From an uncultured Collinsella sp. (GTDB lineage: Bacteria > Actinomycetota > Coriobacteriia > Coriobacteriales > Coriobacteriaceae), in assembly GCA_905199225.1 (NCBI GenBank), contig CAJKFS010000001.1:7895-71894 (forward strand): DNA of 64,000 bases, given 5' to 3'. The position numbers and the translations under genes were made by a program. The notes below the pieces were generated by a model that was not told where the DNA came from, made no database searches, and worked only from the letters and a program-made list of their open reading frames with translations. Shown piece after piece: positions 411 to 21,675 of this stretch (positions are counted from its first letter, which is position 1; each line of letters begins with the position of its first letter).

Positions 411-1352
411 ATGACAGCAAAGCCTTTCTTGCCCATTGACGATCAAGTCAGATTGCTTAAGCAAAGGGGTTTGACTGTTGACGACAACACGGCTCGCATT
501 CTGATGAGCGAGGGTTATTACTCGATTGTTAACGGCTATAAGGATCCGTTTATTGATATGAGCTTAAGCTCGAAGTTCAATGAGGACCGGTATCGCAGCG
601 GCGCAACCTTTTCGGACCTATATTCATTGTTTACGTTCGATAGGGAGTTGAGGTCTCTAACATTTAAGTTTCTCATATTAGCCGAGGCCAAAATAAAGAC
701 CGCGATCGCGTACACCTTTTCGAATGTTCATCGTGGTCCCAATGACTATTACTTGCAGTCTTCATTTTGTACTCAAGACGAATATTCTGCGACGGGAAAA
801 GACGAGGCGAGATACGCCCGTGAGATTTCCAATCTGACGAGCATACTTAGCCGCAGGGCATTAAAAAGTAAATCTGAATTTGTTGCTCACTATCGCAATG
901 AATATGGTTCGGTGCCGCTGTGGGTTCTGGTTAATGATTTGACGTTTGGAAACATGGAGCATTTCTACAATCTGATGAAGCCCGGCGAGCGGCGTACTTT
1001 TTGCAAAATGATTGTAGATGCAACTGGGAAAACCGGATCGAAGAAAAGCGGTTTCTTTAGCGAAAAGGCCGCTCAACTTTCAATTGAAACACTCGTTAAA
1101 TTCCGTAACGTTTGCGCCCATGACGAGCGTCTTTATTGTGCTATGGTCGGAGGGCGCAAGAACATTAACTACATCCAGATGGTGTGGATGCTCAAACGTT
1201 ATCTGACCGAGATTGAATTCAGAACGTTTGTCGAAGAGTTGACGGCTCTGCTGAGTAGGTATTTGAAAACCTACGCGATAAAGCACATACTCGACCAAAT
1301 TGGATTTGTTGAGCTGCTTCAAAAGTCACAAGATGCCACCCTGTTCGATTGA
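411..1352 (+). CDS. Abi_2 family (AbiD/AbiF-like) abortive-infection protein
   Basis: The N-terminus KPFLPIDDQVRLLKQRGLTVDD...GYYSIVNGYKDPF matches the conserved Abi_2 N-terminal signature. Local GC is low (~45-48%). The ATG at 411 is preceded by GAGGAG. Confidence 0.85.
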   Translation: MTAKPFLPIDDQVRLLKQRGLTVDDNTARILMSEGYYSIVNGYKDPFIDMSLSSKFNEDRYRSGATFSDLYSLFTFDRELRSLTFKFLILAEAKIKTAIAYTFSNVHRGPNDYYLQSSFCTQDEYSATGKDEARYAREISNLTSILSRRALKSKSEFVAHYRNEYGSVPLWVLVNDLTFGNMEHFYNLMKPGERRTFCKMIVDATGKTGSKKSGFFSEKAAQLSIETLVKFRNVCAHDERLYCAMVGGRKNINYIQMVWMLKRYLTEIEFRTFVEELTALLSRYLKTYAIKHILDQIGFVELLQKSQDATLFD

Positions 1353-1594
1353 GGCTGAGGGCGTCGATACGGTTGAGTTGTCCTGCAATTGATATCCAAA
1401 TGATTGCACGACAATCTCTATCGAGTATCCAACTTTGCAGAATTATGAGCTGTGGTCAATGAGATGGTCGATGAGTTCGACGGTGGAGTGGTCACTATCT
1501 TTTACATTGAAGCCTAAGGCGATGGACATGCTTTAGATGGGACCGTTCTCACGTGCTGCTGGTTCATGAAGAGTTTTAGACAATTAGAATTAGT

Positions 1595-3421: not shown

Positions 3422-3447
3422 GTGAATTATCGACCTGTCAATCATGA

Positions 3448-4476
3448 TTGAGGGGTGCGGCAGCTTTGGACAATAGCGTTGCGTATGAGTTGTATCTATA
3501 CACGATTGATACTTACAAGAGACTTGCCAGCACGCTTCCACTTGATGAGAGGCTTGCCCGTTTCGATCCTAATTGCTTTTCGAAATTAGGTGAACTTGAG
3601 CTTGGGGATGAAGCGTTTGCTGCGGTCTCGGTGCGTCTTATGCTGCAGCGCAAGTATTTTGTGCGCGGAAAGGACTTGTTTCTCAGGAGGCTGCTCAAGT
3701 CTGCTGAACGGGACTTCGCTTCTAGTAAGGATGTGATTGAATCCTTGCTGGATAGTCTTGATGCCCTTAATAGCCAATCAATTGAGTTTGCCTTTGGGGA
3801 CGGCAAGGTTGTCGAGGGTGCCTTTGCAAACGTCGAAGATGTAATGTACGGAGTGCTGATGCACGCGGATATAACGCGGGCAGAGAACCTCGTCTCTGTT
3901 CCCGAACACATGAGACTGGTCGCCCTGGCACCGTATATCGCGGGGAGAGAACAGATTTTGCTGCAGTTCTCTGAGTTCCTTCTTAATGCTGGAATCAAGC
4001 CGCTATCGAGGAAAGAGGAAGCATCGGCAACTGTTTCGTTTGAATCAAAAGACGCTTGTCGCCAGATTGAGAATTCGCCATTTTGGCGAAATCTTCGCGG
4101 TAGAGATCTTGGGGATGAGGACATTGAGAAAAAGGTTCAGCAAGGTTCGCGCGATGATTTAGAGATAATCACCGCTGTTCTACTATTCAAAGAGGCGCTT
4201 GGCAGAAGGCCCCTGGACCCCAGCGAACTCAATTCCCTTGTCGCACGGGAGACCATTTTCAGATGGGGTGATTATTTGCAAGCCGCCGAGCTTTTGGAAG
4301 GGGATTATGGAATGAGCACTCTTGTTCGGTATCAAGAGGACGGCTCGGCCCTCGTAAAGCTTCTCCCAAACGTTCGAGAACCGTTTCTGATTGAGGGACC
4401 GCAGCTCATCGAGGGCGGGCATGAAATAGTTCTGGTGAAGCGGAACGGCATTTGGAAGATATGGGCTATGAGGTGA
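3448..4476 (+). CDS. Hypothetical protein of 342 aa with no recognisable motifs, co-oriented 26 bp downstream of the OLD-family gene
   Basis: Long ORF on the same strand with a TTG start. Codon usage and GC resemble the upstream OLD gene. I could recognise no catalytic motif. Confidence 0.55.
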   Translation: MRGAAALDNSVAYELYLYTIDTYKRLASTLPLDERLARFDPNCFSKLGELELGDEAFAAVSVRLMLQRKYFVRGKDLFLRRLLKSAERDFASSKDVIESLLDSLDALNSQSIEFAFGDGKVVEGAFANVEDVMYGVLMHADITRAENLVSVPEHMRLVALAPYIAGREQILLQFSEFLLNAGIKPLSRKEEASATVSFESKDACRQIENSPFWRNLRGRDLGDEDIEKKVQQGSRDDLEIITAVLLFKEALGRRPLDPSELNSLVARETIFRWGDYLQAAELLEGDYGMSTLVRYQEDGSALVKLLPNVREPFLIEGPQLIEGGHEIVLVKRNGIWKIWAMR

Positions 4477-4699
4477 CTCTTTTCATCTAGTTTGGACGGC
4501 CTTTTATCCATTGGCGGGCGACGTATCACTTCTTTTGCAATTTAACAGCCACATAGCGAGTACGGCCACGCCCAGTCATATGATTCCCGGCGCTAAATAG
4601 CAAATCACTGACGTGGGCGCATGGACCGCGTCTTCGAGAGTCGCAACAGTTGACGAGGAATCGTCGCGTAGGGATATAAAGAATCTGGTGAGTGCGTTA

Positions 4700-5135
4700 G
4701 CCAGAGATGGCTTTACCGGGTTGCCGATGGTGGAGCCGGGCGCTGGAAAAGTTCTTTGTCTTGTGACGATATGTTAAGATCGATACCGTTCAGTTCCCGG
4801 ATCCGCGGGTCGGTGTAGTTGGCGTTGTAGATTGTCGTGTGCACGTCTTCAACAAAGCGGCTTCGCCTGTTTTCGGTTTCTTGATGGCATGGAAGCTCAT
4901 CTTTTCTTGTTCCCCCAGGTCTCTTAAATTGCCTCGTCGAGAAGTTCTACAAAGAGCCTACTGTGACTTGCCAACTCATACACTGCAGTATAGCTTGCGC
5001 CCGCTTTCGCCTCGTGCCAGGCAAGCGGATCGTAGTAGGCGAGAACATTCAATACTGGAAGAAGGCATTGATATGGGAAGTGCCGTGCCTTTTTGCCACC
5101 AAAATGCCCACCGTGCTTAATGGCGTAATTCATAA
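4700..5135 (-). pseudogene. Probable decayed gene remnant in frameshifted fragments
   Basis: Two minus-strand protein-like fragments in different frames (...AYYDPLAWHEAKAGASYTAVYELASHSRLFVELLDEAI, then ...RFVEDVHTTIYNANYTDPRIRELNGIDLNISSQDKELFQRP). No intact ORF longer than 100 aa exists across 4480-5440. Confidence 0.3.
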
Positions 5136-5189
5136 GATTTGTTATGGTCTCGGCCGGCTAGTTACGGGCTGATTTCCTCAATCAAGGGG

Positions 5190-5300
5190 AGATGGTGTAG
5201 AGTATTTTCCTACAATACAAAAGCTCTTCGGGAGCTTTAAGGGCGACGCTTTCTGTTAGAGAGTGTTGCCCTTTTTTCATGCATGTAATGTGCGACGTGC
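5190..5300 (+). repeat. Copy B of the ~105-bp duplicated intergenic element, located ~145 bp upstream of the AbiL-like ATPase gene
   Basis: Same alignment as copy A. It lacks the left hairpin arm that copy A has. Confidence 0.8.
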
Positions 5301-5443
5301 TTGCTAAACGCCATTCCGGCAATGGGATGGTCGAGTGTGGGCGGTTTGCACCTTGCGCCTGCTGTCATTGGTGTAGCAAGCACTTGATTTAGCCTACTTA
5401 AAGTCTATAATCAAAGAAAAACTCTGATATACCTTTTAAAACA

Positions 5444-6682
5444 ATGAAAAGAATGTTGAGTACCATGCTTTGCCAGTTCACCTTCAGGAACTATAGATCC
5501 TATCGCGACGAGACCGAGCTTTCCATGCAGGCAACATCGATGAGGGAGTTCGAGCGTTCCCTCATAGAGTGCCCTGACGGGCAGAATTTCCTTCCGGTAG
5601 CTGCGGTGTACGGGCCTAACGCTGGCGGCAAGTCTAACCTGCTCGAAGCTCTTGACTATATTCGTTCGGCGGTGGCAAGGCCGATCAGATTGTTGTCTGC
5701 CAGCACTGATGTGCCAGAAGGTAACCGCTCTTCGATACCCCGTTGCTCTGCGTTCGAGTTCGATGACGTGTCGGCTGCTAAGCCCACCGAGTTCGAGCTC
5801 TACTATCGCGCAGGTGAGCATGAGTACCGCTATGCCCTGTCCGTGCATGCGGACGAGATTGTGTCCGAAGGACTGTGGCGGCGCAAATTGGGGGCGTCAC
5901 GCACAGCGATGCTGTTCGAGCGCGAGGGCACAGGGGTTGAGCTTGGTCCCACTCTGCGTAAGCTTGTCACGGCTGCGAGATTCAACCCGAGCCTGCCGTA
6001 CCTGTCGTTTCTCTGCATCAACTTTGACGCGCCGGTGGTCAAGGAGGCTGCCAGCTGGTTTCTTGACGGGGTGTTCCTGAACTATAACAGCTCCTATCTG
6101 GAGCAGATGCTCGAACAATTGCTCGACGAGGATGACTCACCCGAGGTCACGCGTTTTTTGTGCGCCGTTGATGTGCGTATTGATGGCTTCAGAGTGGAGA
6201 GGGCGCCGGAGTGGCGCGGCCAGCGCGTCTTCGTGAGGCACGAGGTGGGCGACAAGGCGTACGAGCTGCGTTTATCCGAGGAATCTGCCGGAACCCAGAA
6301 GCTCATGGGGTTGGCTGCGTATCTGATGACAGCGCTTGAGCGTGGTGGCACCGTTGTGGTAGACGAGCTCGACGCCAAACTGCACCCGAAGCTTCTTCGC
6401 TATGTGATTCTGCTGTTTAAGGATCCTGAGGTCAACAAGAGTGGCGCGCAGCTCATCTTCTCGTCCCAGGATGTGTCAACCATGCGAAACGATGTGTTCC
6501 GCCGTGACGAGATATGGTTCGCTGCGCGCGGCGAGGGGGAGGCGAGCCAACTGTGGTCTCTCGCCGACATCCACGAGGCAAACGGTAATCTGGTAAGCAA
6601 GAACGCGGCTCTCGACAAGCAATACCTGTCTGGTCGCTACGGCGCCGATCCGTATCTCACCCGCATCGAAGAGTGGGATTAG
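5444..6682 (+). CDS. AbiLi-like AAA_21/AAA_15 ATPase (ATP-binding partner of an RloB-type protein)
   Basis: Walker A YGPNAGGKSN. Walker B/D-loop VVVDELDAKLHPKL. The stop codon lies 1 nt before the start of the RloB-like gene. Confidence 0.8.
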   Translation: MKRMLSTMLCQFTFRNYRSYRDETELSMQATSMREFERSLIECPDGQNFLPVAAVYGPNAGGKSNLLEALDYIRSAVARPIRLLSASTDVPEGNRSSIPRCSAFEFDDVSAAKPTEFELYYRAGEHEYRYALSVHADEIVSEGLWRRKLGASRTAMLFEREGTGVELGPTLRKLVTAARFNPSLPYLSFLCINFDAPVVKEAASWFLDGVFLNYNSSYLEQMLEQLLDEDDSPEVTRFLCAVDVRIDGFRVERAPEWRGQRVFVRHEVGDKAYELRLSEESAGTQKLMGLAAYLMTALERGGTVVVDELDAKLHPKLLRYVILLFKDPEVNKSGAQLIFSSQDVSTMRNDVFRRDEIWFAARGEGEASQLWSLADIHEANGNLVSKNAALDKQYLSGRYGADPYLTRIEEWD

Positions 6683-6683
6683 C

Positions 6684-7304
6684 ATGCTGGCGAAGAAGTC
6701 GAAGGGCTGGCGTAGCGGCAAGCGCGAGGGCAAGGAGACCGAGCCTCGCTACTTTGAGGGTGTGCGTGCGGCGTTGGGCGCGGCGAACGAGCGTAAGGTT
6801 GCCATTGTCGTTAAGGGGACCGGCAAACACACGCTTGACCTACTTGACTTCGCCGTCGAACACTGCCGCTATGCGCCCGAGACATTCGACCATGTGTGGC
6901 TCGTGTATGACAAGGATGACTTTCCTGCGTCCGACTTTGACGCGATGGAGCGCAAATGCAACGAGCTCTCCGACGGTTCGAGGACCTTCCATGCGTTGTG
7001 GTCGAACCCCTGCTTCGAGCTGTGGCCGCTTCTGCACTTTCGCTACACGACCGCGCATATGTCCGCGTCCGACTGCCAGCATGTCCTCGCGCAGGAGATG
7101 TCGAGAGACCTGGGCATCGAGTACCGCAAGAACTTGGACGGGCTGTTCGAGGTGGTGGACGGCAAACGAGGCGAGGCATTGCAGCGTGTTGGGCGCCTCG
7201 TCACATACCATAGGGGGCTGGGTAACGTTAAGCCATCTGCGCAAAACCCTGCAACCAAGGTGGGCGAAATTTTCGATGTAATCGGGCCGTATCTGGTTGG
7301 CTAG
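6684..7304 (+). CDS. RloB-like / AbiLii-like protein (divergent TOPRIM)
   Basis: N-terminal GKETEPRYFEG motif, a central WLVYDKDDF motif, and SNPCFELWPLLHF. These are the characteristic RloB-family motifs. This frame is chosen over the overlapping frame at 6673. Confidence 0.85.
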   Translation: MLAKKSKGWRSGKREGKETEPRYFEGVRAALGAANERKVAIVVKGTGKHTLDLLDFAVEHCRYAPETFDHVWLVYDKDDFPASDFDAMERKCNELSDGSRTFHALWSNPCFELWPLLHFRYTTAHMSASDCQHVLAQEMSRDLGIEYRKNLDGLFEVVDGKRGEALQRVGRLVTYHRGLGNVKPSAQNPATKVGEIFDVIGPYLVG

Positions 7305-7650
7305 TCGAGTCTGTGGATTGGCTTTCCGGTTAGGGCGATTGGCGGATTATGATGCGCGATTGCAAATCCGGTGCGTAGGAGAAGTGCGGAGAAAAATCGA
7401 AACTCGCCGAGCATAGCCCGATTTCAGGCAACAAAACCGCAGGTCGCGGGTGCCCAAAACTAGGGTCTGGTCGACAGGTCTCGGTTTTTCACCCCACTTC
7501 CGAATTGGTCGCTCATTTAGCACTCTTGATGTCCCCACATCCTCTAAAAAAGTTCTTAAAACAGCCTTAAAGGCGTTCCAACTCGCGTTGACAGCGTAAA
7601 ATACGCATGTTTGACTATGACAGAAGTGGATTTTAGGGGAGGAGTACGCC

Positions 7651-9789
7651 ATGGAGGTGCTGGTTGTTGGCAACACCGCATATGTTGACGATGACTTTTG
7701 TGCCAAGGCGTTCCCCGGGGACCACGTTAAGGTCGTCGCTGCCGCGGAAGCGCGCCGCGACGAGTCGTCGCCCCATGCCTCGTGGAAAGAGCTCCTCCAG
7801 CACCTGGATCAGGCCTACGAGTTCGACCGCGTGGTTTACCTGTCTAATTACCTTACCCCGCATACCGATTCCGTGGGCGATATCGAGCTGCTGCGCTCGG
7901 TCTTTCGTACGTGCGCGGGTCGCCGGGTCCAACTGCTGTATGTAGCGGGGCCCGCGGGTGCCGAGGGTGCCGCCGATGCCGCGGGGCGAACGGGCAAGGG
8001 CATTATCGCGCACGCAGCCAACGACCTGTGCCGCTACTACGCTGCTCGCGAGGGCGTTCAGACCAAGATCCTGCGCGTGCCGTTCCTCTATACCGCGTCT
8101 GCCGCGCTGGAGGACCCGTTTTTGGTGCCGATGTTCGACGCATGCTCAACCGGATCGGCCGCTCTGCAGGGCGCGCAGGATGCGGCGTTTCCCCTGCTGT
8201 GTGCCGAGGAGCTTTCGGTGCTGGTACGCCGTATCTTCGACAGCTGGAATGCTAACTTTGAGACGCTCGACGTAGTCGATACCTTCCATCACACGGTGGG
8301 TGAGGTGGGCGACGCCCTCAAGGCGCTGTTCCCAGGGCTCTCAGTTGCCTATGGCGATTCTGCCGGCTACGCCCTGCCCGCCAGCGACGTCGCTCGCGTG
8401 CGCTATGGCTGGTTTCAGCGCTACGACTTGCTGCGCGACCTCTCGACCATTCAGGCTCGCTGGGATGCTGGCCGTGCAAAGAAGGTCAACCCCTTGCGCG
8501 CGGCCATCGACCGCATTCAAATGCGCACGCTGCCTGTCAAATGCCTGGAGACGGCAGCCGCCTGGGTGCTCTTTGAAGTGCTGGAGCGCTTGTTCTCCCA
8601 ATCGACCCAGCTCAACGTGCTCGATTATCGCCTGCTCTACGTGGTGCTGATCGGCACGCTGTATGGCTTGGACTTTGGCCTGGTTGCGGCGCTGCTGGCG
8701 TCGGTGGGTTTGGCTGCGAGTTACTTTACTCTGTACGGCTATACCTTCCAGGGCCTGTTCTACGAGCCGTCCAACTGGCTGCCGTTTATTGCGTACTTTG
8801 TTGTGGGTGCCGTGTGCGGCTATGTGCAGCTGCGCAACAGCGAAGCCATTAGGGCGGAGCGCGATCAAAACGAGCTCGTGCGCAACCGCAATACGTTCCT
8901 TACGCAGCTCTATCACGACGCGATCGAGGACAAGCGTGCGTACAGGCGCCAGATCGTGGGTCGCCACGACAGCTTTGGCAAGATCTTTGCCGTGACGCAG
9001 GAGCTCGACGTGCTCAACCCACGCGACATCTATCGCAAGTGCTGCGAGCTTCTGGGCGAGATCCTCGAGAACGATTCGGTGGCGATCTACCATGTTTCGG
9101 GCGGGGCATTTGCACGCCTGGTGGCGGCAAGTCCCGCGATTGCCGAAGATGCCGCACGTTCGCTCACGCTTGAGCAGCTTGCACCTCTTTTGAGCGACGG
9201 GGGTCGTTCGAACCTGTGGGTGAACCGCGAACTGATGCCGGGGCTTCCCATGTTTTGTTATACGATCGAGCGCGATGGGGCACCCGCCGTGTTGATCTTT
9301 GTGCGTCGCGCGGCCGAAAACCAAATGACCCTCTATTACCAAAACCTGTTCCGCATCTTGTGTGGCCTGGTCGAAAGCGCGCTGGGCCGTGCCTTTGACT
9401 ATGAGGCGGTGGCACAGGATAAACGCTGCGTTGACGGCACTTGCGTGCTCAAGCAGGCTGCCTTTGGCCAAGAGCTCGCGGCCGAGCAGGCGCTGGCAGA
9501 TGGCAAGATGGGGAGTTTTTTGCTCCTGCGCGTGGTACCAGGCATGGAGCCTATCGGCGAGCTGGTGGGCGCGATTGGGTCGGCGATCCGCGAGAGCGAT
9601 GCGGCGGGCCTGATCGACGGCGACGTGCTCTACCTGCTTATGCGCCAGGCAAAGGCATGCGATCTGCCCATTATCCGCGAGCGCCTGAGCGAAAAGCAGA
9701 TTGAGGTGGAGCCCGTCGACGGCGAGGATATCGTGGCGCTGTTGCAGCACATCTCTTACACCGGTGACGGTGAGGGGGGTGCCGCTTGA
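7651..9789 (+). CDS. pelD: PelD-like c-di-GMP receptor: N-terminal degenerate SDR/epimerase-like domain, transmembrane helices, and a GAF / degenerate-GGDEF C-terminus
   Basis: RESD(x5)DGDVL gives an intact I-site RxxD five residues before a degenerate GG(D/E)EF position. Hydrophobic helices occur near residues 330-400. The N-terminus (VLVVGN..., ...RVPFLYTAS) looks like a Rossmann/epimerase fold without GxxGxxG. It is the first gene of an operon containing pelF and pelG. The ATG is preceded by GGGGAGGAG. Confidence 0.6.
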   Translation: MEVLVVGNTAYVDDDFCAKAFPGDHVKVVAAAEARRDESSPHASWKELLQHLDQAYEFDRVVYLSNYLTPHTDSVGDIELLRSVFRTCAGRRVQLLYVAGPAGAEGAADAAGRTGKGIIAHAANDLCRYYAAREGVQTKILRVPFLYTASAALEDPFLVPMFDACSTGSAALQGAQDAAFPLLCAEELSVLVRRIFDSWNANFETLDVVDTFHHTVGEVGDALKALFPGLSVAYGDSAGYALPASDVARVRYGWFQRYDLLRDLSTIQARWDAGRAKKVNPLRAAIDRIQMRTLPVKCLETAAAWVLFEVLERLFSQSTQLNVLDYRLLYVVLIGTLYGLDFGLVAALLASVGLAASYFTLYGYTFQGLFYEPSNWLPFIAYFVVGAVCGYVQLRNSEAIRAERDQNELVRNRNTFLTQLYHDAIEDKRAYRRQIVGRHDSFGKIFAVTQELDVLNPRDIYRKCCELLGEILENDSVAIYHVSGGAFARLVAASPAIAEDAARSLTLEQLAPLLSDGGRSNLWVNRELMPGLPMFCYTIERDGAPAVLIFVRRAAENQMTLYYQNLFRILCGLVESALGRAFDYEAVAQDKRCVDGTCVLKQAAFGQELAAEQALADGKMGSFLLLRVVPGMEPIGELVGAIGSAIRESDAAGLIDGDVLYLLMRQAKACDLPIIRERLSEKQIEVEPVDGEDIVALLQHISYTGDGEGGAA

Positions 9790-10691
9790 TCTCGCTTGTC
9801 GTTGCTGCCGTCTTGCTGCTGATTCATGCGCTGGTTTGCCTGGTGCTGTGGACGCTCATGAAGTTGGGCCTGCTGCCGGTGCGCGGGCACATGCTGCCTG
9901 TGATAGTGCTGGTGCCGCTGTGGGGCCCGTTGCTGGTGGTTCTGCTATCGGTCTGCAGCGCGGTGTTTGGCGAGGGACTGAATGAGTCTGCGCTGGAGTC
10001 GCTGCGCTTCAACGACGACCTGCATCGCAGCATCTTAGTGCACGAACGTGATGCCGATGCAGGCGTGATCCCGCTCGAGGAGGCGCTCATCGTCAACGAC
10101 CCGGCAGACCGGCGCCGCCTAATGCTCTCCATGCTCACCGAGGAGCCCGACGCGTACCTGGCGCAGCTGCAGGCGGCTAAGCTTAACGACGACGTTGAGG
10201 TGGCTCACTATGCCGCGACGGCGGTGGCGCAGATCTCCAAGGAGTCCGACCTTAAACTGCAGCAGCTGGAGCGTGCCTTTAAGACGGACCCGAGCGCGCA
10301 AAACCTCAACGAATACTGCGATTTTCTTGGTGAATACTTGGGCTCGGGCTTGGCTGAGGGGCGCGTGGCTCAGATTCAACGCCAACAGTACGCGCGCTTG
10401 CTTGCGCGTCGCTGCGAGCGCGAGGACACCCTTGAGCTTCGCATTCGATACGCGACGGCGCTGGCCGATGTCGGACAGATCGACGAGGCGCAGGCCGTGA
10501 CCGACCAGCTGGTGCTCGACGTGCCCGAGGAGCAGGAGGTTTGGATGCTTTGCCTGCGCCTGGCGGTGATGCGCCGCGACGGTGACGAGGTCCACCGCGT
10601 GATCGATGCGATTGACAAACAGCATGTATACTTGAGCGCCGCCAACCGCGAGGAACTGGCGTTTTGGCGCAACGGAGAGGAGGCCCGATGA
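9786..10691 (+). CDS. pelE: PelE-like membrane protein (N-terminal transmembrane helices plus helical/TPR-like repeats)
   Basis: A hydrophobic N-terminus with two predicted transmembrane segments is followed by an alpha-helical repeat region. Its position between pelD and pelA matches Gram-positive pel operons. The TTG start overlaps the pelD stop. Confidence 0.5.
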   Translation: MISLVVAAVLLLIHALVCLVLWTLMKLGLLPVRGHMLPVIVLVPLWGPLLVVLLSVCSAVFGEGLNESALESLRFNDDLHRSILVHERDADAGVIPLEEALIVNDPADRRRLMLSMLTEEPDAYLAQLQAAKLNDDVEVAHYAATAVAQISKESDLKLQQLERAFKTDPSAQNLNEYCDFLGEYLGSGLAEGRVAQIQRQQYARLLARRCEREDTLELRIRYATALADVGQIDEAQAVTDQLVLDVPEEQEVWMLCLRLAVMRRDGDEVHRVIDAIDKQHVYLSAANREELAFWRNGEEAR

Positions 10692-12568
10692 GCGTGGTGC
10701 AGCATATCCGCGACCGTGCGGGCCATTTTCGCTGGATGGGGCTGCTTGTGGTGTGGGCGGTCTTTATTGCCATGGCGGCCGTGCTGCTGGTGGAGCGCGC
10801 CGGCGTGCAGTACAGTGCGGGCCAGCATAAGCTGGGGATGCTTGCCGCCAACGATGCGGTGCCGGCTTCCTCCGCAATATTTGGCCAAAAGCCCACGTGC
10901 CTGGTCATTACCGATTCCGACCAAGCTGGCGTCGAGGACGTAAAGGAGCAGTTTGACCAGATCCTGCTCGACATGAAGATCGCGCACCGCGACGTGGACC
11001 TTGCCCTGGACGGCGTGGATGCCATTCCCTCGCTGACCTCCTTCGATCGCGTGATTTTGCTCATGCCGTCGCTCGATGGGCTCGGTACGCACCTGAGTGA
11101 CATTATGAGTTGGGTGAGTGCCGGTGGTTCGCTTATGCTCGCCATGCCTCCGGATAACTCGAGCTATCTGCAAGTAATTGCCCCCAAGCTTGGCATTGAA
11201 TCGGCCGGATATGACTATGTAAAAGCCGAAAGCATTGTGCCGAGCGAGGACTTTATGCTGGGCGGGGGAGAGCGCTACGAGCTCTCGGACCCCTTCGATT
11301 CGTCGCTTTCGGTTTCGCTGCGCGAGACGGCTCGTGTGTGGGCTAAGACCGGCGATGCGGGCGCCCCGCTCATTTGGTCGAATGACTGCGGTAGCGGGCG
11401 CACCGTGGTATGCAATATCGGTATCTATGACAAGGTTATGCGCGGTTTTTACGCCGCGGCGATCAGCCTGCTGGGCGATGCCACGGCCTATCCGGTCATC
11501 AACAGCGCCGTTTTCTACCTAGACGACTTTCCCAGCCCCGTGCCCTCGGGCGATGGCACCTACATCAAGCGCGACTACGGGCTTTCCATTGCCGATTTTT
11601 ACACCAAGGTTTGGTGGCCCGATCTGCAAAAGCTCGCGCAAAAATATGGCATTCGCTTTACCGGCGTGATGATCGAAAACTACGAGGACGCGGTCAACCA
11701 GACCGAGCCCGCGCGCCAGGCCGATACCACGCAGTTCCGCTACTTTGGCGGTATGCTGCTGCAGATGGGCGGAGAGCTGGGCTTTCACGGCTACAACCAT
11801 CAGCCTCTGGCGCTCTGGGATACCGACTATGGCAAGCTGTACGACTACAAGACGTGGAAGAACGAGGAAACGCTCGTCGCGTCGCTCAACGAGCTCATCG
11901 CCTTTCAGGACGAGGTGCTGCCCAACGCGCACGGCTCGGTCTATGTGCCACCGTCGAATATCCTTTCGGCCCGTGCGCGCAAGCTTATTGGCACCGACGT
12001 TCCGCGCATTAAGACCATCGCCAGTACGTATTTTGAGGATGGCACCGTCTTGCCCCATGTGCAGGAGTTTGGCGTGGCGAGCGATGGCATTGTGGAGCAG
12101 CCACGTATTGTCTCGGGCGGCATGGTCAACGATTCCTATATGCGTCTGGCAGCCGTGTCCGAGCTCAACATGCACTACGTGAGTACGCACTTTATGCACC
12201 CGGATGATCTGCTCGATCCCGATCGCGGCGCCAAGGAGGGCTGGGAGGTCTACAAGGGCGGTCTGACCAACTACCTGGAGTGGCTTACCAAGTCTGCGCC
12301 CGACCTGCGGCGCCAGACCGGTTCGGAATGCTCGGGCGCCATCCAGCGCTTTTCGTCCGTGACGGTGAGCGTGGATACAAGTGCGGATGCCTGGACGCTC
12401 AGCCTGGGCAATTTCCACGACGAGGCGTGGCTCATGTTCCGCGCCAACAACGGTGAGCCCGGTGCAGTCACGGGTGGCGAGATTACGCATCTGACGGGCG
12501 ACCTGTACCTGGTCAAAGCCACGGACAAGACGGTGACCATTGCACGCAAGGAGGGTGGCGACAAATGA
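10688..12568 (+). CDS. pelA: PelA-like polysaccharide deacetylase (CE4-like) with an N-terminal membrane anchor
   Basis: CE4-like motif 1 FYLDDFP and motif 2 HGYNHQP. An N-terminal transmembrane helix is present. ATGA start/stop coupling links it to pelE upstream and pelF downstream. Confidence 0.55.
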   Translation: MSVVQHIRDRAGHFRWMGLLVVWAVFIAMAAVLLVERAGVQYSAGQHKLGMLAANDAVPASSAIFGQKPTCLVITDSDQAGVEDVKEQFDQILLDMKIAHRDVDLALDGVDAIPSLTSFDRVILLMPSLDGLGTHLSDIMSWVSAGGSLMLAMPPDNSSYLQVIAPKLGIESAGYDYVKAESIVPSEDFMLGGGERYELSDPFDSSLSVSLRETARVWAKTGDAGAPLIWSNDCGSGRTVVCNIGIYDKVMRGFYAAAISLLGDATAYPVINSAVFYLDDFPSPVPSGDGTYIKRDYGLSIADFYTKVWWPDLQKLAQKYGIRFTGVMIENYEDAVNQTEPARQADTTQFRYFGGMLLQMGGELGFHGYNHQPLALWDTDYGKLYDYKTWKNEETLVASLNELIAFQDEVLPNAHGSVYVPPSNILSARARKLIGTDVPRIKTIASTYFEDGTVLPHVQEFGVASDGIVEQPRIVSGGMVNDSYMRLAAVSELNMHYVSTHFMHPDDLLDPDRGAKEGWEVYKGGLTNYLEWLTKSAPDLRRQTGSECSGAIQRFSSVTVSVDTSADAWTLSLGNFHDEAWLMFRANNGEPGAVTGGEITHLTGDLYLVKATDKTVTIARKEGGDK

Positions 12569-13992
12569 GAATCTGCTTGGTACTCGAGGGTTGCTACCCC
12601 TATGTGCACGGCGGCGTGTCCACCTGGATGCACGGCTACATACAGGCCATGCCCGAGCACGAGTTTGTGCTGTGGGTGATTGGCGCGCATGCTGTCGACC
12701 GCGGCAAGTTTGTCTACGAGCTGCCCGGCAACGTGGTCGAGGTGCACGAGGTGTTTCTGGACGACGCCCTGCGCCTATCGGGCGAGCAAGAAGAGGCCGA
12801 CTTTAACGCCCGCGAGCGCGAGGCGCTGCGCCGCCTGGTGTCGCTCTCCAATCCGGACTGGGACGTGCTATTCGATATCTTCCAGCGCCGTCGCGTGCAT
12901 CCGCTCTCGTTTTTGCAGAGTCGCGCCTTTATGGATATCTTTCGCGACGTGTGCCTGGCCGAGTACCCATACACGCCCTTTGCCGATGCATTCCACACCA
13001 TGCGCTCCATGCTGCTGCCCGTGCTCTACCTTCTGGGCAGCGAGGTGCCGGTGGCCGATGTGTACCACGCCATCTCGACCGGCTACGGTGGCCTGCTCGC
13101 CTGCCTGGGCTCAAGCGTTCACCATGCGCCGGTGCTGCTGACCGAGCATGGCATCTATACTCGCGAACGCGAGGAAGAGATCATTCGCGCTGACTGGGTG
13201 GTGCCGTCGTTTAAGGACCGCTGGATCCGCTTTTTCTACCTGCTTTCGGAGGAGATCTACCGTCGCGCCTTCCGCGTGACCAGTTTGTTCCATAACGCCC
13301 GCAAGACGCAGATCGATATGGGCTGCGATGCGGACAAATGCCTGGTCATCCCCAACGGCATCCAGTTCGACCGCTTTAAGGACATTCCCTTAAAGCCCGA
13401 TGACGGCTGGGTGGACATTGGCGCGGTGGTGCGCCTGGCGCCCATCAAGGACGTCAAGACCATGATCTATGCGTTCTTTGAGCTGCACGAGCGCCTGCCC
13501 AAGGTGCGCCTGCACGTTATGGGCGGCGTGGACGACGAGGAGTACGGCGCTGAGTGCCACGCGCTGGTCGATACCCTGGGCGTGCGCGACCTGATCTTTA
13601 CCGGCCGCGTCAACGTGGTCGAGTACATGGAAAAGCTCGACTTTACCATTTTGACGAGCATCTCCGAGGGCCAGCCACTCAGCGTGCTGGAGTCGCTTGC
13701 AGCGCGCCGTCCCTGCGTGACGACCGAGGTGGGCTGCTGTCGCGAGCTGCTCGAAGGCGCCCCGGGCGACGACTTTGGCGTGGCGGGTTTTGTGACGCCG
13801 CCCATGTATCGCAAGGGCTTGGCCGATGCCATGGAGCGCATGTGCGTGAGCCGCGCCCGTCGCATTGAGATGGGGGAGCGCGGGCAGCGTCGCGTTGCCA
13901 CGTACTTTTTGCACGAGCAGATGCTCGCCAACTATCGCGCGCTGTACGACGAGACGGCGTGTGCGTTTAACCTGCCCAGAGAGGGGGAGTAG
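12565..13992 (+). CDS. pelF: PelF, a GT4-family glycosyltransferase with an N-terminal DUF3492
   Basis: N-terminus MRICLVLEGCYPYVHGGVSTW matches the PelF/DUF3492 signature (CLLLEG.YPYV.GGVSSW). The C-terminus has the GT4 fold motif E..GQPLSVLES.A. Confidence 0.85.
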   Translation: MRICLVLEGCYPYVHGGVSTWMHGYIQAMPEHEFVLWVIGAHAVDRGKFVYELPGNVVEVHEVFLDDALRLSGEQEEADFNAREREALRRLVSLSNPDWDVLFDIFQRRRVHPLSFLQSRAFMDIFRDVCLAEYPYTPFADAFHTMRSMLLPVLYLLGSEVPVADVYHAISTGYGGLLACLGSSVHHAPVLLTEHGIYTREREEEIIRADWVVPSFKDRWIRFFYLLSEEIYRRAFRVTSLFHNARKTQIDMGCDADKCLVIPNGIQFDRFKDIPLKPDDGWVDIGAVVRLAPIKDVKTMIYAFFELHERLPKVRLHVMGGVDDEEYGAECHALVDTLGVRDLIFTGRVNVVEYMEKLDFTILTSISEGQPLSVLESLAARRPCVTTEVGCCRELLEGAPGDDFGVAGFVTPPMYRKGLADAMERMCVSRARRIEMGERGQRRVATYFLHEQMLANYRALYDETACAFNLPREGE

Positions 13993-13995
13993 CCG

Positions 13996-15540
13996 GTGGC
14001 CGGAATTGGTTTTGAGCTCAAGCGCCTGTTTAGGCGCAAGGGCCTGTTTGCCACGATGCGCGCTTACGGCTACGCCGGCATCGTATGCACGGGCCCCATG
14101 CTGCTGGGTGTGCTGCTGCAGGTGGGTATTTTGGTGCTGTGCGGTCTGTGGGGTGTGGGCCGTGCCAACCAGGATCTGCTGGTGTGCATGGTGACCTACA
14201 CACTGCTGGCCTCGCTTGCGCTCACGAGCTTTTTCTCCATGCCGGTCACGCGCTTTTTGGCTGATATGTTGTTTGCCGAGCGCGAGGATGAGATACTGCC
14301 TTCGTTTTGGGGCTCCAATGCTGTCATGCTCGTTGCGGGCACGGTGCTCTACGGCGTTTTTTTGCTGTTCTCGGGCGCCACGCTGCTGCAGGGGCTGCTA
14401 TGCCTGTGGCTGTTCAACATTATGATCGTCAACTGGAACGGCATGAGTTACCTCACGGCCATCAAGGATTACCGCGGTATCCTGTGCAGCTTTGCGGCTG
14501 CCATTGGCGTGGCGTGCCTGTGCGCTCTGGCCGCGCTGGCGCTGGGACTGCCGCCGGTCGAGGGCCTGCTGGCGTCAATCGCTCTGGGCTACGGCGTGAT
14601 GCTCGCTTGGGACGTGGTGCTGCTGTACCGGTATTTTCCACGGAGTGACCGGAGTCCCTGGCGTTTTTTGCGCTGGCTCGACCAATTTATGCCGCTTGCG
14701 CTTACGGGGCTGTTTACCAACTTGGGGCTTTTCGCACACCTGGTTATTATCTGGGCGGGCCCTATTGGCGTGCAGATCAAAGGCCTGTTTTACGGGGCTC
14801 CTTACCATGACGTGCCGGCACTCATTGCGTTTTTGACCACACTCGTCACGACCGTCAACTTTGTGGTGTCGGTCGAGGTCAATTTCTATCCGCGCTACCG
14901 TGACTACTACAGCCTTTTTAACGACGGCGGCGTGGTGGGCGATATTGTGGTGGCCGAGGAGGAGATGCTCTCCACGCTCAACAGCGAACTGCGCTTTTGC
15001 GCGCTCAAGCAGCTGTTTGTGACGGCGGCGGTCATTTCGCTCGAGACCACAGTGCTCTCGGCCCTGCCGCTGGGCTTTAACAATCTTATGCACGGGTATT
15101 TTCGCACGTTATGCGTAGGCTACGGCCTGTATGCCGTGGGCAACACGATCCTGCTTATCTTGCTGTACTTTACCGACTACAAGGGAGCCGTTCTGGCCTC
15201 GGGCCTGTTTGCCGGTGTGGCAGGGTTGGCGACCGCCGTGTCGTTGCTTTTGCCGCAGCAGTTTTACGGCTTTGGCTTTTTGTTGGGTGCGGTGGTGTTT
15301 TTTATCGTGGCCCTGCTGCGGCTCGATACCTATACCGCCAACTTGCCGTATCGTATCCTGAGCCAGCAGCCCATTGTGGCGACCGACAAAACGGGTCGCT
15401 TTACACAGCTGGGCCGCTTGCTCGACCGTGCCGAGCAGCGCTATGAGGAGTGCCGCCGCAAGGGCGTGCCGCACGGCGCGTTTCAGCGCGCAGTAGTTCG
15501 CGTGTATCGCAACCATTGGGGAGGTTCTGATGATCGATAA
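13996..15540 (+). CDS. pelG: PelG, a polytopic membrane protein (MOP/flippase-like)
   Basis: N-terminus MAGIGFELKRLFRRKGLFATMRAYGYAGIVCTGPMLLGVLL closely resembles PelG N-termini. Roughly 12 hydrophobic segments are present. GTG start. Confidence 0.85.
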   Translation: MAGIGFELKRLFRRKGLFATMRAYGYAGIVCTGPMLLGVLLQVGILVLCGLWGVGRANQDLLVCMVTYTLLASLALTSFFSMPVTRFLADMLFAEREDEILPSFWGSNAVMLVAGTVLYGVFLLFSGATLLQGLLCLWLFNIMIVNWNGMSYLTAIKDYRGILCSFAAAIGVACLCALAALALGLPPVEGLLASIALGYGVMLAWDVVLLYRYFPRSDRSPWRFLRWLDQFMPLALTGLFTNLGLFAHLVIIWAGPIGVQIKGLFYGAPYHDVPALIAFLTTLVTTVNFVVSVEVNFYPRYRDYYSLFNDGGVVGDIVVAEEEMLSTLNSELRFCALKQLFVTAAVISLETTVLSALPLGFNNLMHGYFRTLCVGYGLYAVGNTILLILLYFTDYKGAVLASGLFAGVAGLATAVSLLLPQQFYGFGFLLGAVVFFIVALLRLDTYTANLPYRILSQQPIVATDKTGRFTQLGRLLDRAEQRYEECRRKGVPHGAFQRAVVRVYRNHWGGSDDR

Positions 15541-17299
15541 GTTGATGTCTCGCCGCTGCCTGATCGAGGCGGCTGCCGGCGCGCTGCTGCTTTCGGGCTG
15601 CTCATCTCAGGACGAATCCTCGACCAAAAAGGTCAAAAAGCAGGACAAGATTAAAAAGGCCGAGTCCTCGGACGCTACCAAGCACCTACGCGATAAAGAC
15701 GAGCTGTACGAGGTCTACGACGACTCGGGCATTGTGACCATGTACCTGACGGTCTCGCGCGGCAACAGCTCCGAGAACACCGACCACAGCTGGGCCGAGA
15801 TCAATACGTACTCGGTGTATGACTATGCCGACATGGGCGTGACGCGCTATCAGGTAATGGGCCTTTTGCAGGCGGGCGACGAAGACGGCCCGGCGGCCGG
15901 CGAGGTTGGCTATGGCGAGGAAGCGCCCAATGCTACCGTGCAGGTGCGCGGTCAGACATCGAGCATGAACTCGCAAAAGAATTACAAGGTGGAGCTCAAA
16001 AAGGGCAAGGGTACCTGGCGCCAGCAGCGCGCGATTGCGCTCAACAAGCACATGGGCGAGGGTATGCGTTTTCGCAACAAGATGGCCTACGACCTTATCC
16101 GCGGAATCCCCCAGATGATGGGCCTGCGCACGCAGTTTGTGCATCTTTGGGTGTGCGATCAGACCGAAAAGTCCAACGATACCTTTGAGGACTACGGCCT
16201 GTTTACGCAGGTGGAGCAGCTCAACAAGACGGCGCTCAAGGCACATGGCCTGGATAAGAGCGGGCACCTGTACAAGGTGAACAGCTTCGATTTCCGCCGC
16301 TACGAGGACACCATTAAACTTGCCGACGACCCAGACTACAACCAGGCAAACTTTGAGGGCATGCTCGAGATCAAGGGAGACTCGGACCACACCAAGCTTA
16401 TCGAGATGCTCGAGGCGCTCAACGACGATACGCAAAAGATCGACGATGTGCTCGACACCTACTTTGATACCGAGAACCTGGTCTATTGGCTGGCGTTTCA
16501 GCTCCTGACGGGCAACTGCGATACGCAGAACCGTAACTGCTATCTGTATAGCCCGCTCAACTCCAATACGTGGTACATCCTCGATTGGGACAACGACGGC
16601 ATGCTGCGCAAGCTGGAGCTGTCTCTGACCGGCTTTTCGGACTATGCGAGCTGGGAGCGCGGCGTAAGCAACTACTGGGGCAACGTGCTATTCAATCGTG
16701 CAATGCGTAGCAAATCGTTCCGCAGCGAGCTCGACCGCGCCGTAAAGGACCTGCGCTCGTATATGACCGAGGCACGTCTTGCCAAGATGATCAAACATTA
16801 TCGCGAGGTTACCGAATCCCTGGTTTTTGCCTCGCCCGATATCGACAATCTGCCTGTCACCAAGGACCAATACGAGCAGATCGCCGCGGCGATTCCCTCC
16901 GAGATCGAGGAGAACTATAAGAGCTACTGCGAGAGCTATAAAAAGCCCATGCCGTTCTACATTGGCGTGCCGCAGATCGATAACGGTAAGCTGCGCATTA
17001 ACTGGGATGCGTCCTACGACTTTAAGGCGCGTGACATTCGCTATACCGTGGAGCTGGCGCGCGACTATGCCATAAGCGACGTGCTTTTTAAGGCCGAGGA
17101 CGTGCTGCTGCCCGAAGTGACCTGCGATGCGCCCGATGCCGGCCAGTATTTTGTGCGCGTGCGCGCCACCAACTCAGACGGCTATACGCAAGATGCGTTT
17201 GACTACTATGTGACCGACGACGGCAAGCACTACGGCATGAAGTGTTTTTACGTGCAAGACGGCGGTAAGGTCGTGGAGGACACGTATGAGGAAGGCTAG
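15530..17299 (+). CDS. Secreted lipoprotein, CotH-like (atypical kinase family) candidate
   Basis: Lipobox LLLSGCSS. A NCYLYSPLNSNTWYILDWDNDGM segment resembles the CotH core. The start overlaps the pelG end by 11 bp. It is followed by VTC and DUF4956 genes, a recurrent CotH neighbourhood. Confidence 0.45.
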   Translation: MIDKLMSRRCLIEAAAGALLLSGCSSQDESSTKKVKKQDKIKKAESSDATKHLRDKDELYEVYDDSGIVTMYLTVSRGNSSENTDHSWAEINTYSVYDYADMGVTRYQVMGLLQAGDEDGPAAGEVGYGEEAPNATVQVRGQTSSMNSQKNYKVELKKGKGTWRQQRAIALNKHMGEGMRFRNKMAYDLIRGIPQMMGLRTQFVHLWVCDQTEKSNDTFEDYGLFTQVEQLNKTALKAHGLDKSGHLYKVNSFDFRRYEDTIKLADDPDYNQANFEGMLEIKGDSDHTKLIEMLEALNDDTQKIDDVLDTYFDTENLVYWLAFQLLTGNCDTQNRNCYLYSPLNSNTWYILDWDNDGMLRKLELSLTGFSDYASWERGVSNYWGNVLFNRAMRSKSFRSELDRAVKDLRSYMTEARLAKMIKHYREVTESLVFASPDIDNLPVTKDQYEQIAAAIPSEIEENYKSYCESYKKPMPFYIGVPQIDNGKLRINWDASYDFKARDIRYTVELARDYAISDVLFKAEDVLLPEVTCDAPDAGQYFVRVRATNSDGYTQDAFDYYVTDDGKHYGMKCFYVQDGGKVVEDTYEEG

Positions 17300-18077
17300 C
17301 GCGCTGCTTGAGCGCTTGGCGGCTCCGCCTGTGCGTGCCACGCAGGAGCGTTACCGCCACGAGCTCAAATATCTCATTAACGAGGGTGAGCACGCCGCGC
17401 TGGCCTGCCGCATGGCGCCGGTTTTCAAGCTAGACAAGCATGCGCAGGCGGGCGGCTATACCATTCGCAGCCTGTACTTTGACGACTACTGCAACTCGGC
17501 CTACGAAGAAAAAGACGCCGGCATTCTTATGCGCAAAAAGTATCGCGTGCGCATCTATAACGGCAGCGACAAGGTGATTAAGCTCGAGCGTAAAAAGAAG
17601 TACGGTAGCTGGATCTACAAGGAGGACGCGCCGCTCACGCGCGGCGAGTTTGAACAGATTCTGGCCGGAGACTACGACTTTTTGCTGAGGAGCCCCTATC
17701 CCCTCTGTCGCGAGTTCTACATCGAGTGCATCTGCAACATGATGCGCCCGCGGACCATCGTGGACTACGAGCGCGAGCCGTGGGTGATGGACGAGGGCAC
17801 CGTGCGCATTACCTTTGATAGCAACGTGCGTGCCGCGGTGGGAAGCTTCGACATCTTTGACGCGACGCTGCCCGCGCTGCCGGTCCTGGAGCCCGGCAAG
17901 CTGGTGATGGAGGTCAAGTTTACGGAGTTTTGCCCGCAGCTGGTGCGCGATATGGTGCCGCCGGGCGCGGCCGAGCTCACGGCGGTCTCCAAGTACTGCC
18001 TGTGTTACGAAAAGACCGCCTACCTGCGCGGATTTAATTACTGGGAATCGGATTTTGAGAACCGAGGGGATATTTAG
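17286..18077 (+). CDS. VTC-domain (CYTH-like, polyphosphate-polymerase-domain) protein
   Basis: LKYLINEGEHAAL...GYTIRSLYFDD...KYRVRIY matches the bacterial VTC-domain pattern. It overlaps the upstream gene by 14 bp. Confidence 0.65.
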   Translation: MRKASALLERLAAPPVRATQERYRHELKYLINEGEHAALACRMAPVFKLDKHAQAGGYTIRSLYFDDYCNSAYEEKDAGILMRKKYRVRIYNGSDKVIKLERKKKYGSWIYKEDAPLTRGEFEQILAGDYDFLLRSPYPLCREFYIECICNMMRPRTIVDYEREPWVMDEGTVRITFDSNVRAAVGSFDIFDATLPALPVLEPGKLVMEVKFTEFCPQLVRDMVPPGAAELTAVSKYCLCYEKTAYLRGFNYWESDFENRGDI

Positions 18078-18080
18078 ACC

Positions 18081-18746
18081 ATGAGCACCAGGGACTTTTT
18101 TAAGAACTCCGTCTTGGAGGCGTTTGGCCAGGTCGACCCTGCCAAGATCGGCCTGTCGCTGCTCGTGGCGCTCGCCATGGGCATCCTGATCTATTACGTG
18201 TACAAGCGCTTTTTTACCGGCGTGGTGTATTCGCGCAGTTTTGCCGTGACGCTTGTGGGCATGTGCGTGCTTACCTGCATGGTTACGCTCGCGATCTCGA
18301 CGAACGTGGTCATCTCGCTCGGTATGGTCGGCGCTCTGTCCATCGTTCGTTACCGTACGGCGGTCAAGGACCCGCTCGACCTGCTGTATCTGTTTTGGGC
18401 CATTACGACGGGTATTACGGCCGGCGCCGGCATGTATGCGCTCGTGGGGCTCACGGCAGCGGTGATCGTGGTGATGATCGCCGGCTTTGCGAGCCACCAG
18501 GACAAGGCGCGTGTGTACATGATGGTCATCCACTACACGGGCCAGACCACCGGCGACGATATCGTGCGCGCGTTTGGGCGTACCAAGTTCACCGTCAAAT
18601 CTAAGACGATGCGCGGTGACAAGGTCGAGATGGCCGTCGAGGTGTTCTCGGACGGCGTTGACATGCCCTACGCCGATGCGATTCGCGCGCTCGACGGCGT
18701 TGAGGACCTGACGCTCATCCAGTACAACGGCGAATATCACGGCTAG
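18081..18746 (+). CDS. DUF4956-like small membrane protein
   Basis: Three to four hydrophobic helices followed by a soluble C-terminal domain. It lies 3 bp after the VTC gene, the usual VTC/DUF4956 pairing. Confidence 0.55.
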   Translation: MSTRDFFKNSVLEAFGQVDPAKIGLSLLVALAMGILIYYVYKRFFTGVVYSRSFAVTLVGMCVLTCMVTLAISTNVVISLGMVGALSIVRYRTAVKDPLDLLYLFWAITTGITAGAGMYALVGLTAAVIVVMIAGFASHQDKARVYMMVIHYTGQTTGDDIVRAFGRTKFTVKSKTMRGDKVEMAVEVFSDGVDMPYADAIRALDGVEDLTLIQYNGEYHG

Positions 18747-18752
18747 TTTGGT

Positions 18753-18776
18753 TCCGGCGTTCTAACGAACGCCGGA
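18753..18776 (+). terminator. Hairpin (10-bp perfect stem TCCGGCGTTC / GAACGCCGGA, loop TAAC) 7 nt after the operon stop, with no U-tract
   Basis: Read directly from the sequence. Likely the end of the pel-CotH-VTC-DUF4956 transcript. Confidence 0.45.
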
Positions 18777-19013
18777 CCGCTCGACGCTGCGCGGGCATCT
18801 GCCGGGCGATCTGCCGCTCAAACCGTCGCTCGCGTACATAAAGTACGCGTCGCTCCTCTTTTGTGGCACCTCGCCACGGCAGCTGCCCGTTCGCTGGCGT
18901 ATGCTCGACCAGGATGGGCATATTTGGTTCGGTTTAAATTGATTTATTATGCCGACTTGGGCTGGGTATGATGGTGCAAACGATTGCAAGATAAAGGGGT
19001 GCTCGTGGTAAAG

Positions 19014-19985: not shown

Positions 19986-20167
19986 GCTTTGGGCATGTCT
20001 GCCGGCCTTTGATTCCCTGTTTTTGGCTCAAAACCACCTTTCACCGTCAAATATCTACCGTTTACCGCTAATGAAAACGATTACAGCTATATATAACTGA
20101 AAACGATTACAGTGTAAGTGTCAAAGATGGCCGGGTGCAGATGCGCCCGTTGGAGGAAAGGGAAGTC

Positions 20168-21568: not shown

Positions 21569-21675
21569 GAGCTTTTGATTGAGGGGATGCCCGCGGGTTG
21601 TATGCTCGCGGGCGTTTCCCGTATCCGGTGCCGATCTCTGGTGCCTTGTTACTTTCGATCCGTTAGGACTTTGAT

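Follow-up and report, generated by a model that had tools for sequence, protein, structure and literature searches.

What has become of a protein that carries the remnant of a sugar-nucleotide epimerase at one end and of a diguanylate cyclase at the other, and is it still equipped to read c-di-GMP, the second messenger cyclic dimeric guanosine monophosphate? The question is raised by a gene on the forward strand (7651..9789) of a 64,000-nucleotide stretch of DNA from an uncultured Collinsella sp. (assembly GCA_905199225.1, contig CAJKFS010000001.1, positions 7,895 to 71,894; hereafter the 64-kb window). The gene opens with an ATG start codon, encodes 712 amino acids (aa), belongs to a large family of homologues of ~700 aa and is the first gene of a pel operon. 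The source is a Collinsella of the aerofaciens group; the loci sampled were the best 80 of 575 confirmed matches, nearly all of them labelled Collinsella or Collinsella aerofaciens, and two (L001 and L002) encode a protein 100% identical to the one described here. We conclude that the open reading frame (ORF) very probably encodes a Class III PelD and belongs to a pelDEA_DAFG-cotH-VTC-DUF4956 cluster of Collinsella (Coriobacteriia). Class III PelD proteins consist of a domain of the short-chain dehydrogenase/reductase (SDR) type that has degenerated, a DUF4118 membrane region, a GAF domain and a degenerate GGDEF domain (Whitfield & Howell 2021, PMC7890745). The identification is made because of the operon context, an SDR fold whose motifs are lost, a GAF plus GGDEF fold, the conservation of the inhibitory site (I-site) and purifying selection.

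An earlier note on this DNA, made from the sequence alone, had proposed that the protein keeps a PleD-type I-site exactly five residues ahead of a degenerate GGDEF motif. The translation holds IRESDAAGLIDGDVLY, in which RESD (aa 647-650; 9589..9600) is followed by the five residues AAGLI and then by the pentapeptide DGDVL (aa 656-660; 9616..9630). RxxD by itself was discarded as evidence, because it occurs at chance frequency: the protein has four copies, and shuffled sequences would be expected to have 3.3. The I-site is meaningful because of its alignment register, its conservation and the modelled structure. When the profile of the last ~120 aa was compared with the PDB, it matched GGDEF-domain structures only (7e6g, E 5.5e-5; 6khu, E 8.4e-4; then 4urg, 4wxw, 3ign and 6zxm). 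In these alignments the family's 'R-e-n-D' falls on the target RxxD, R647-E-S-D650 aligning with the RxxD of 7e6g, 4urg and 4wxw; 'e-d-g-k-l', here DGDVL, falls on the GGEEF/GGDEF of the solved cyclases; and the Arg of 'leRl' falls on a target Arg, R678 (9682..9684; D650 + 28) pairing with the Arg of 'LERV' in 7e6g. The register claimed by the earlier note is confirmed against these solved cyclases.

At E < 1e-3 the family numbered 1057 representatives, each of a cluster at 50% identity, and its alignment contained 72 full-length representatives that were 23-56% identical to the query. Each of R647, D650 and R678 is present in 70 of these 72 and invariant in 77/77 Collinsella orthologues; the neighbouring G653 and Q666 are kept in 68/72 and 67/72, respectively. 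The GGDEF-equivalent positions vary across the family, with E-D-G-N-L as the commonest residues. In these alignments, no other feature of the GGDEF-like domain is as conserved as the allosteric I-site triad R647/D650/R678.

The PleD/WspR-type cyclases likewise carry RxxD five residues before the GG(D/E)EF hairpin and an Arg on the next helix, and in PleD the I-site is R359/D362/R390, also with a spacing of D+28. They have the GGDEF motif, whereas Collinsella PelD does not, and its alignment passes over ~14 canonical residues (7e6g residues 140-153) that lie between strand beta-1 and helix alpha-2, so the domain is shortened as well as mutated at its active site. The GGDEF segment just before helix alpha-2 normally holds substrate- and metal-binding residues, and it is missing here together with the GG(D/E)EF motif that an active diguanylate cyclase requires. 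Judged from the sequence, the cyclase active site is gone. Because the GGDEF motif is absent and ~14 canonical residues are skipped, we regard the domain as a putative receptor only.

The full-length protein was modelled with AlphaFold2 from 60 sequences (mean predicted local distance difference test score, pLDDT, 79). In the model, strands and helices alternate in the Rossmann manner at aa 1-280, followed by membrane helices, a very long helix at 373-437, a GAF-like alpha/beta domain at 441-592 and a small alpha/beta domain. As in the GGDEF hairpin, a tight turn of residues 656-658 joins strand 651-655 to strand 659-665, and R678 lies on the helix (669-681) that follows this hairpin. A separate model of aa 430-712 (283 aa; pLDDT 81) was searched with Foldseek; the GAF-GGDEF cyclase Dcsbis (4zmu, E 7.7e-8) came first and Pseudomonas aeruginosa PelD (4dn0, E 8e-8) second, the PelD structures 4dn0, 4etz, 4euv, 4dmz and 4etx matching over the whole length at E 8e-8 to 1e-6, with ~290 aligned columns for 4dn0, 4etz and 4euv (E 8e-8 to 3e-7). 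The GAF domain (aa 441-592; 8971..9426) finds 4dn0 and phytochrome GAF domains, and the isolated GAF domain 3cit with a template-modelling score, TM(target), of 0.63 and a root mean square deviation (rmsd) of 4.7. The shortened, degenerate GGDEF domain (aa 593-705; 9427..9765) completes the GAF-then-GGDEF order of PelD. The earlier note had made its proposal depend on a GGDEF fold in the C-terminal region, and this is what both the Foldseek matches (~1e-7 for Dcsbis and PelD) and the GGDEF-only profile matches point to.

The Class I PelDs of P. aeruginosa (4DN0, 4DMZ, 4ETX, 4ETZ and 4EUV) and Bacillus cereus ATCC 10987 share with the Collinsella protein the transmembrane region, the GAF domain and the degenerate GGDEF domain. 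They also share an RxxD five residues before the dead motif and a later Arg: R367/D370/R402 in P. aeruginosa and R363/D366/R395 in B. cereus, compared with R647/D650/R678 here. The spacing from the Asp to the later Arg is 28 in Collinsella, 32 in P. aeruginosa and 29 in B. cereus. Binding of c-di-GMP, required for Pel production, has been shown only for these two PelDs, and P. aeruginosa R402 and B. cereus R395 are required for it (PMC7112168). By analogy, R678 is the probable counterpart of these residues. The probable equivalence to R367/D370/R402 of P. aeruginosa PelD is drawn from alignment to other GGDEF structures and from the fold match. The two classes differ in the ~280-aa N-terminal SDR-like domain, which Class I PelD lacks, and their similarity is too low for a HMMER link. 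The crystal constructs of Pseudomonas PelD end at residue 455, which leaves 257 extra residues in the Collinsella protein, within the 250-300 aa that the earlier note had estimated.

Those extra residues form a degenerate, extended-SDR (epimerase-like) domain at aa 1-280 (7651..8490), which begins with MEVLVVGNTAYVDDDF and holds KILRVPFLYTAS at aa 139-150. A single-sequence phmmer search against the PDB gave merely marginal SDR matches (E 0.03). Over aa 2-279 the family profile found extended SDRs, with E-values from 4.8e-19 to 1e-13, a range spanned by the threonine dehydrogenases, with L-threonine 3-dehydrogenase 5z76 at E 4.8e-19, the B. cereus UDP-N-acetylglucosamine (UDP-GlcNAc) 4-epimerase 3m2p at E 2.6e-14 and nucleoside diphosphate (NDP)-sugar epimerases at ~1e-13. 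The fold agrees, as all of the top 50 Foldseek matches of the full-length model were extended SDRs or NDP-sugar enzymes (GDP-fucose synthase 4bl5, E 1.8e-9; also 5z76 and 3m2p; TM(target) ~0.6), and pLDDT in this region is mostly 85-93. The SDR-like reading of the N-terminus given in the earlier note is therefore borne out by fold as well as by profile.

In place of the cofactor motif GxxGxxG the protein has G7-N-T-A10-Y-V-D13 (7669..7689), and G7 alone is invariant in the family (72/72), position 10 being G in 14/72 and position 13 in 3/72. The catalytic YxxxK position now reads K116-G-I-I-A120 (7996..8010), pairwise alignment to threonine dehydrogenase 7epr placing K116 opposite the catalytic Tyr and A120 opposite the catalytic Lys. 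Neither GxxGxxG nor YxxxK was found in any of 72 + 60 aligned relatives, and at each degenerate motif position 76-77 of the 77 Collinsella orthologues have the same residue. The degeneracy characteristic of Class III is thus present at the cofactor motif and at both catalytic positions.

All PelD domains are under purifying selection in Collinsella, the ratio of non-synonymous to synonymous substitution rates (dN/dS) among the 77 orthologues being 0.17 for the degenerate SDR domain, 0.09 for the transmembrane region, 0.08 for the GAF domain and 0.14 for the degenerate GGDEF domain. The SDR-like domain would be incapable of canonical binding of nicotinamide adenine dinucleotide (NAD) or of epimerization, yet it is under purifying selection. 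It most likely has a structural or docking function at the cytoplasmic face, and the co-inherited CotH, VTC and DUF4956 proteins are possible docking partners, as hypothesized in the literature (PMC7890745).

The earlier note had also suggested that the domain is a domesticated PelX-like epimerase fused to the receptor. The fusion of a degenerate, epimerase-like SDR stands; an origin from PelX specifically is not supported. PelX, the UDP-GlcNAc C4-epimerase of Pseudomonas protegens (6WJ9, 6WJA and 6WJB), resembles the SDR-like domain in its extended SDR fold and its association with pel, but it is an active enzyme in its own right, its motifs intact, and the family profile matches it weakly and partially (6WJB/6WJ9; aa 91-275 or 126-275, E 1.6e-4 to 3.6e-4), against E 4.8e-19 for the threonine-dehydrogenase/GalE-like SDRs. 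On account of this weak match, PelX was rejected as the specific ancestor. The domain plausibly descends from some NDP-sugar-epimerase-like SDR.

Could the domain still be a ligand sensor? It might bind UDP-GlcNAc or UDP-N-acetylgalactosamine (UDP-GalNAc), or NAD(H) in a non-canonical way, and so couple precursor supply to the synthase, making PelD a two-input receptor together with c-di-GMP. The SDR fold has been kept in full and is modelled with high confidence, the domain is universally kept in the clade and constrained by selection (dN/dS 0.17), NDP-sugar enzymes are among its close structural relatives, and Class II relatives with intact motifs have been reported to resemble UDP-hexose C4-epimerases (PMC7890745). 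However, Collinsella PelD has just one of the three glycines of the cofactor motif, the domain is the least conserved of the protein family-wide (mean pairwise identity 21%; 11/280 columns at least 80% conserved), and several of the conserved columns, which include G7, P144, an acidic residue at position 187 and W254, match general fold motifs. We consider a ligand sensor unlikely. A wider version, in which the dead SDR domain provides a second sensory input either as a pseudoenzyme that binds a nucleotide-sugar or dinucleotide or as a docking or phosphorylation target of the CotH kinase, has a similarly small chance of being correct; if true, c-di-GMP would share the control of Pel synthesis in Collinsella and other gut Gram-positive bacteria with precursor or phosphate status. 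The most likely role of the SDR-like domain is that of a structural or docking module that has been kept.

Between the SDR-like and GAF domains lies a DUF4118-like membrane region (aa 295-400; 8533..8850), a probable assignment to which Pfam, model helices and hydropathy point. The model has helices at 294-315, 326-360 and 366-437, and clear hydropathy peaks occur at 327-363 and 376-394 only; the published description of this PelD region is of four transmembrane helices. Homologues bear a precomputed PF13493 match. A long linker helix (aa 401-440; 8851..8970), part of model helix 373-437, continues the last transmembrane helix towards the GAF domain.

The genomic context is that of a Gram-positive pel locus, a tightly packed cluster in which all genes from pelD to that encoding the DUF4956 protein are co-directional on the forward strand. 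A Shine-Dalgarno-like sequence, GGGGAGGAG (7636..7644), can be read directly 6 nt 5' of the pelD start codon. Directly 3' of pelD come the four genes that mark a PelD operon: a pelE-like gene for a tetratricopeptide repeat (TPR) protein (9786..10691), which has weak Pfam matches to TPR_19 and TPR_14 (E 8.4e-5 and 0.0029, both under cut-off) and the same position after pelD as in the relatives L081 and L082; pelA_DA, encoding a DUF2194 deacetylase-like protein (10664..12568; Pfam DUF2194, E 8e-172); the glycosyltransferase gene pelF (12565..13992; Pfam DUF3492, E 7.7e-81, plus GT1); and pelG (13996..15540; Pfam PelG, E 8.1e-137). Three accessory genes follow. The first is a cotH-like kinase gene (15530..17299; Pfam CotH, E 2.1e-65), which also lies directly 3' of pelG in L081 and L082. 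The second is a VTC (polyphosphate polymerase-like) gene (17286..18077; Pfam VTC, E 9.2e-32), and the third, a DUF4956 gene (18081..18746; Pfam DUF4956, E 1.9e-11), ends the cluster, with a LacI regulator next. The Clostridia locus L081 has a gene order identical to that of the Collinsella pel cluster, and the gene order of L082 is that of the published bifidobacterial layout and matches the Collinsella operon context. The relatives each carry a gene that is absent from the Collinsella cluster: a DUF4832 gene (21034-22112) in L081, and in L082 an EAL plus GGDEF gene (21345-22208) that closes the cluster and links it to c-di-GMP.

The protein shows no architectural difference from published Class III PelDs, known from clostridia and from actinobacteria such as Bifidobacterium, which have the same domain order and the same pelDEA_DAFG operon with contiguous cotH, VTC and DUF4956 genes. 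Every testable feature of the class is present, apart from a DUF4118 match that lies just under the Pfam cut-off. Much of this was known before. Extended PelDs with a degenerate SDR have been described in clostridia and actinobacteria, where they correlate with downstream cotH accessory genes, and altered SDR cofactor and catalytic residues were reported in the same study, S2 Fig of which tabulates the same four motifs as the earlier note (Whitfield et al. 2020, PLoS Pathog, PMC7112168). An SDR domain occurs in ~75% of Gram-positive PelDs, and its origin by degeneration of a fused UDP-hexose C4-epimerase has been proposed (PMC7890745). Collinsella aerofaciens C11 and 'indica' are included in S1 Table of pel-bearing genomes (PMC7112168). 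The degenerate SDR/GGDEF architecture was already published in 2020-2021 and the species already listed, and the architectural point of the earlier note goes no further than PMC7112168 and PMC7890745.

PelD is a subunit, anchored in the membrane, that regulates the synthase of Pel, a secreted biofilm polysaccharide. In the model proposed here, c-di-GMP would bind R647/D650/R678 of the dead GGDEF domain, and this binding would license polymerization and export of Pel through a PelD-E-F-G complex. Binding of c-di-GMP by Collinsella PelD is a prediction from the I-site. A tie to c-di-GMP is supported in relatives, by the EAL plus GGDEF gene of L082 and by a subclade in which an HD-GYP-type domain is fused to the N-terminus of the same protein.

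Several observations weigh against this identification and model. The Pfam models of GGDEF, GAF and Epimerase do not match the protein, whether whole or as N- and C-terminal pieces and even at E 10, DUF4118 alone being matched, and that at E 7.8e-6 and 26.1 bits, just under the cut-off of 28.4. P. aeruginosa PelD was missed by sequence profiles against the PDB and recovered by fold alone, and a short Class-I-like homologue (P0172) likewise had no match in the PDB by phmmer. The global TM-score to PelD is low (0.39, rmsd ~17 A), which we attribute to what may be a different orientation of the GAF and GGDEF domains in the model. No diguanylate cyclase was found by Pfam scans of the large ORFs of the 64-kb window, and a crude regular-expression search of 1.38 Mb of Collinsella pel-flanking loci found no ORF with GG[DE]EF. 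We found no report in the literature of ligand binding by Collinsella PelD or any Class III PelD, and the scaffold role of the SDR-like domain is put forward as a hypothesis.

A related concern is that the Collinsella I-site might be a relic, or might bind another nucleotide, with Pel output mainly under the control of the CotH kinase and VTC, as proposed for streptococcal Class IV PelD. Unlike L082, the Collinsella cluster has no GGDEF or EAL gene in it or beside it; the CotH, VTC and DUF4956 genes are present; and our literature search found no report of c-di-GMP signalling in Collinsella, the species surfacing only in a supplementary table. Set against this, R647, D650 and R678 are invariant in 77/77 orthologues and the domain evolves at a dN/dS of 0.14, whereas a relic would drift, and streptococci without cyclases have deleted the whole GGDEF domain instead of keeping it (PMC7112168). 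We find a relic or repurposed I-site distinctly improbable. It is hardly credible that the SDR-like domain is still active and, as has been suggested for Class II PelD, provides PelF with UDP-GalNAc by epimerization: some homologues are named 'UDP-glucose 4-epimerase' and a 40%-identical homologue (P0336) has a weak Pfam Epimerase match (E 1.8e-5), but GxxGxxG reads GNTAYVD, Lys116 and Ala120 stand in place of the catalytic Tyr and Lys, neither motif survives in the 72 + 60 aligned relatives, and the degenerate residues are fixed in 76-77/77 Collinsella orthologues.

The database names just mentioned were given by JGI to P0062 and by NCBI to P0283, and NCBI calls a Collinsella homologue a 'DUF4118 domain-containing protein'; none of P0062, P0283 and P0374 is named PelD or c-di-GMP receptor. 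Despite such names, we do not file the protein as an epimerase, because GxxGxxG and YxxxK are both absent. A practical by-product of the analysis is that the PelD family is seen to be misleadingly annotated, as 'UDP-glucose 4-epimerase' or 'DUF4118 domain-containing protein'.

Other observations concern c-di-GMP metabolism. In a subclade of Class-III-like PelD homologues, an HD_5/HD domain of the HD-GYP phosphodiesterase type (aa ~40-192) precedes the degenerate SDR domain: P0343 (943 aa), P0335 (940 aa), P0138 (930 aa) and P0347 (964 aa), with an example in locus L083 (3962-6793). Its Pfam E-value was 7e-30 to 2e-26 in the three homologues that were scanned, and P0347 was identified from a precomputed Pfam list. 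This five-domain layout lies outside the four PelD classes of 2021 and may be undescribed; the fusion would place a c-di-GMP-degrading domain and a c-di-GMP receptor in one polypeptide. The window also encodes a DHH/DHHA1 protein with an NrnA-like oligoribonuclease/phosphoesterase fold (35329-36372), located among the housekeeping genes nusA, infB, truB and ribF. Enzymes of this family are able to break down pGpG, which c-di-GMP hydrolysis yields; for the Collinsella protein this role would be conjecture. Rfam revealed no c-di-GMP riboswitch or other leader RNA 5' of pelD, a tRNA gene at 42050-42121 being the sole match at the gathering threshold in the whole 64-kb window.

Directly 5' of pelD lies a defence island of low GC content (45-51%; 411-7304), encoding AbiD (411-1352), an AriA/GajA-like ABC ATPase (1595-3421), a 342-aa ORF (3448-4476) without a Pfam or PADLOC match, and an AbiL pair (AbiLi, 5444-6682; AbiLii/RloB, 6684-7304). 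The drop in GC content suggests that the island is horizontally acquired DNA inserted beside the pel cluster. On the other side, 3' of the DUF4956 gene, is a sucrose-use module (LacI, phosphotransferase system EIIBC and GH32; 18747-23208). In L082, the PelF-like gene (14957-16404) was called at 293 aa only, with two small ORFs on the reverse strand ahead of it, which suggests that pelF is frameshifted or truncated there, or that the metagenomic contig contains an assembly error.

Overall, the locus bears on questions that the field has already published: the role of the degenerate SDR domain, c-di-GMP binding in Class III PelD, the input of the CotH, VTC and DUF4956 proteins, and where c-di-GMP in Collinsella would come from. 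Collinsella is an abundant actinobacterium of the human gut, and its complete and selectively maintained Pel cluster suggests that it can produce a matrix polysaccharide rich in GalNAc, with c-di-GMP as the probable regulator. A GalNAc-rich polysaccharide in Collinsella would bear on aggregation and host interaction.

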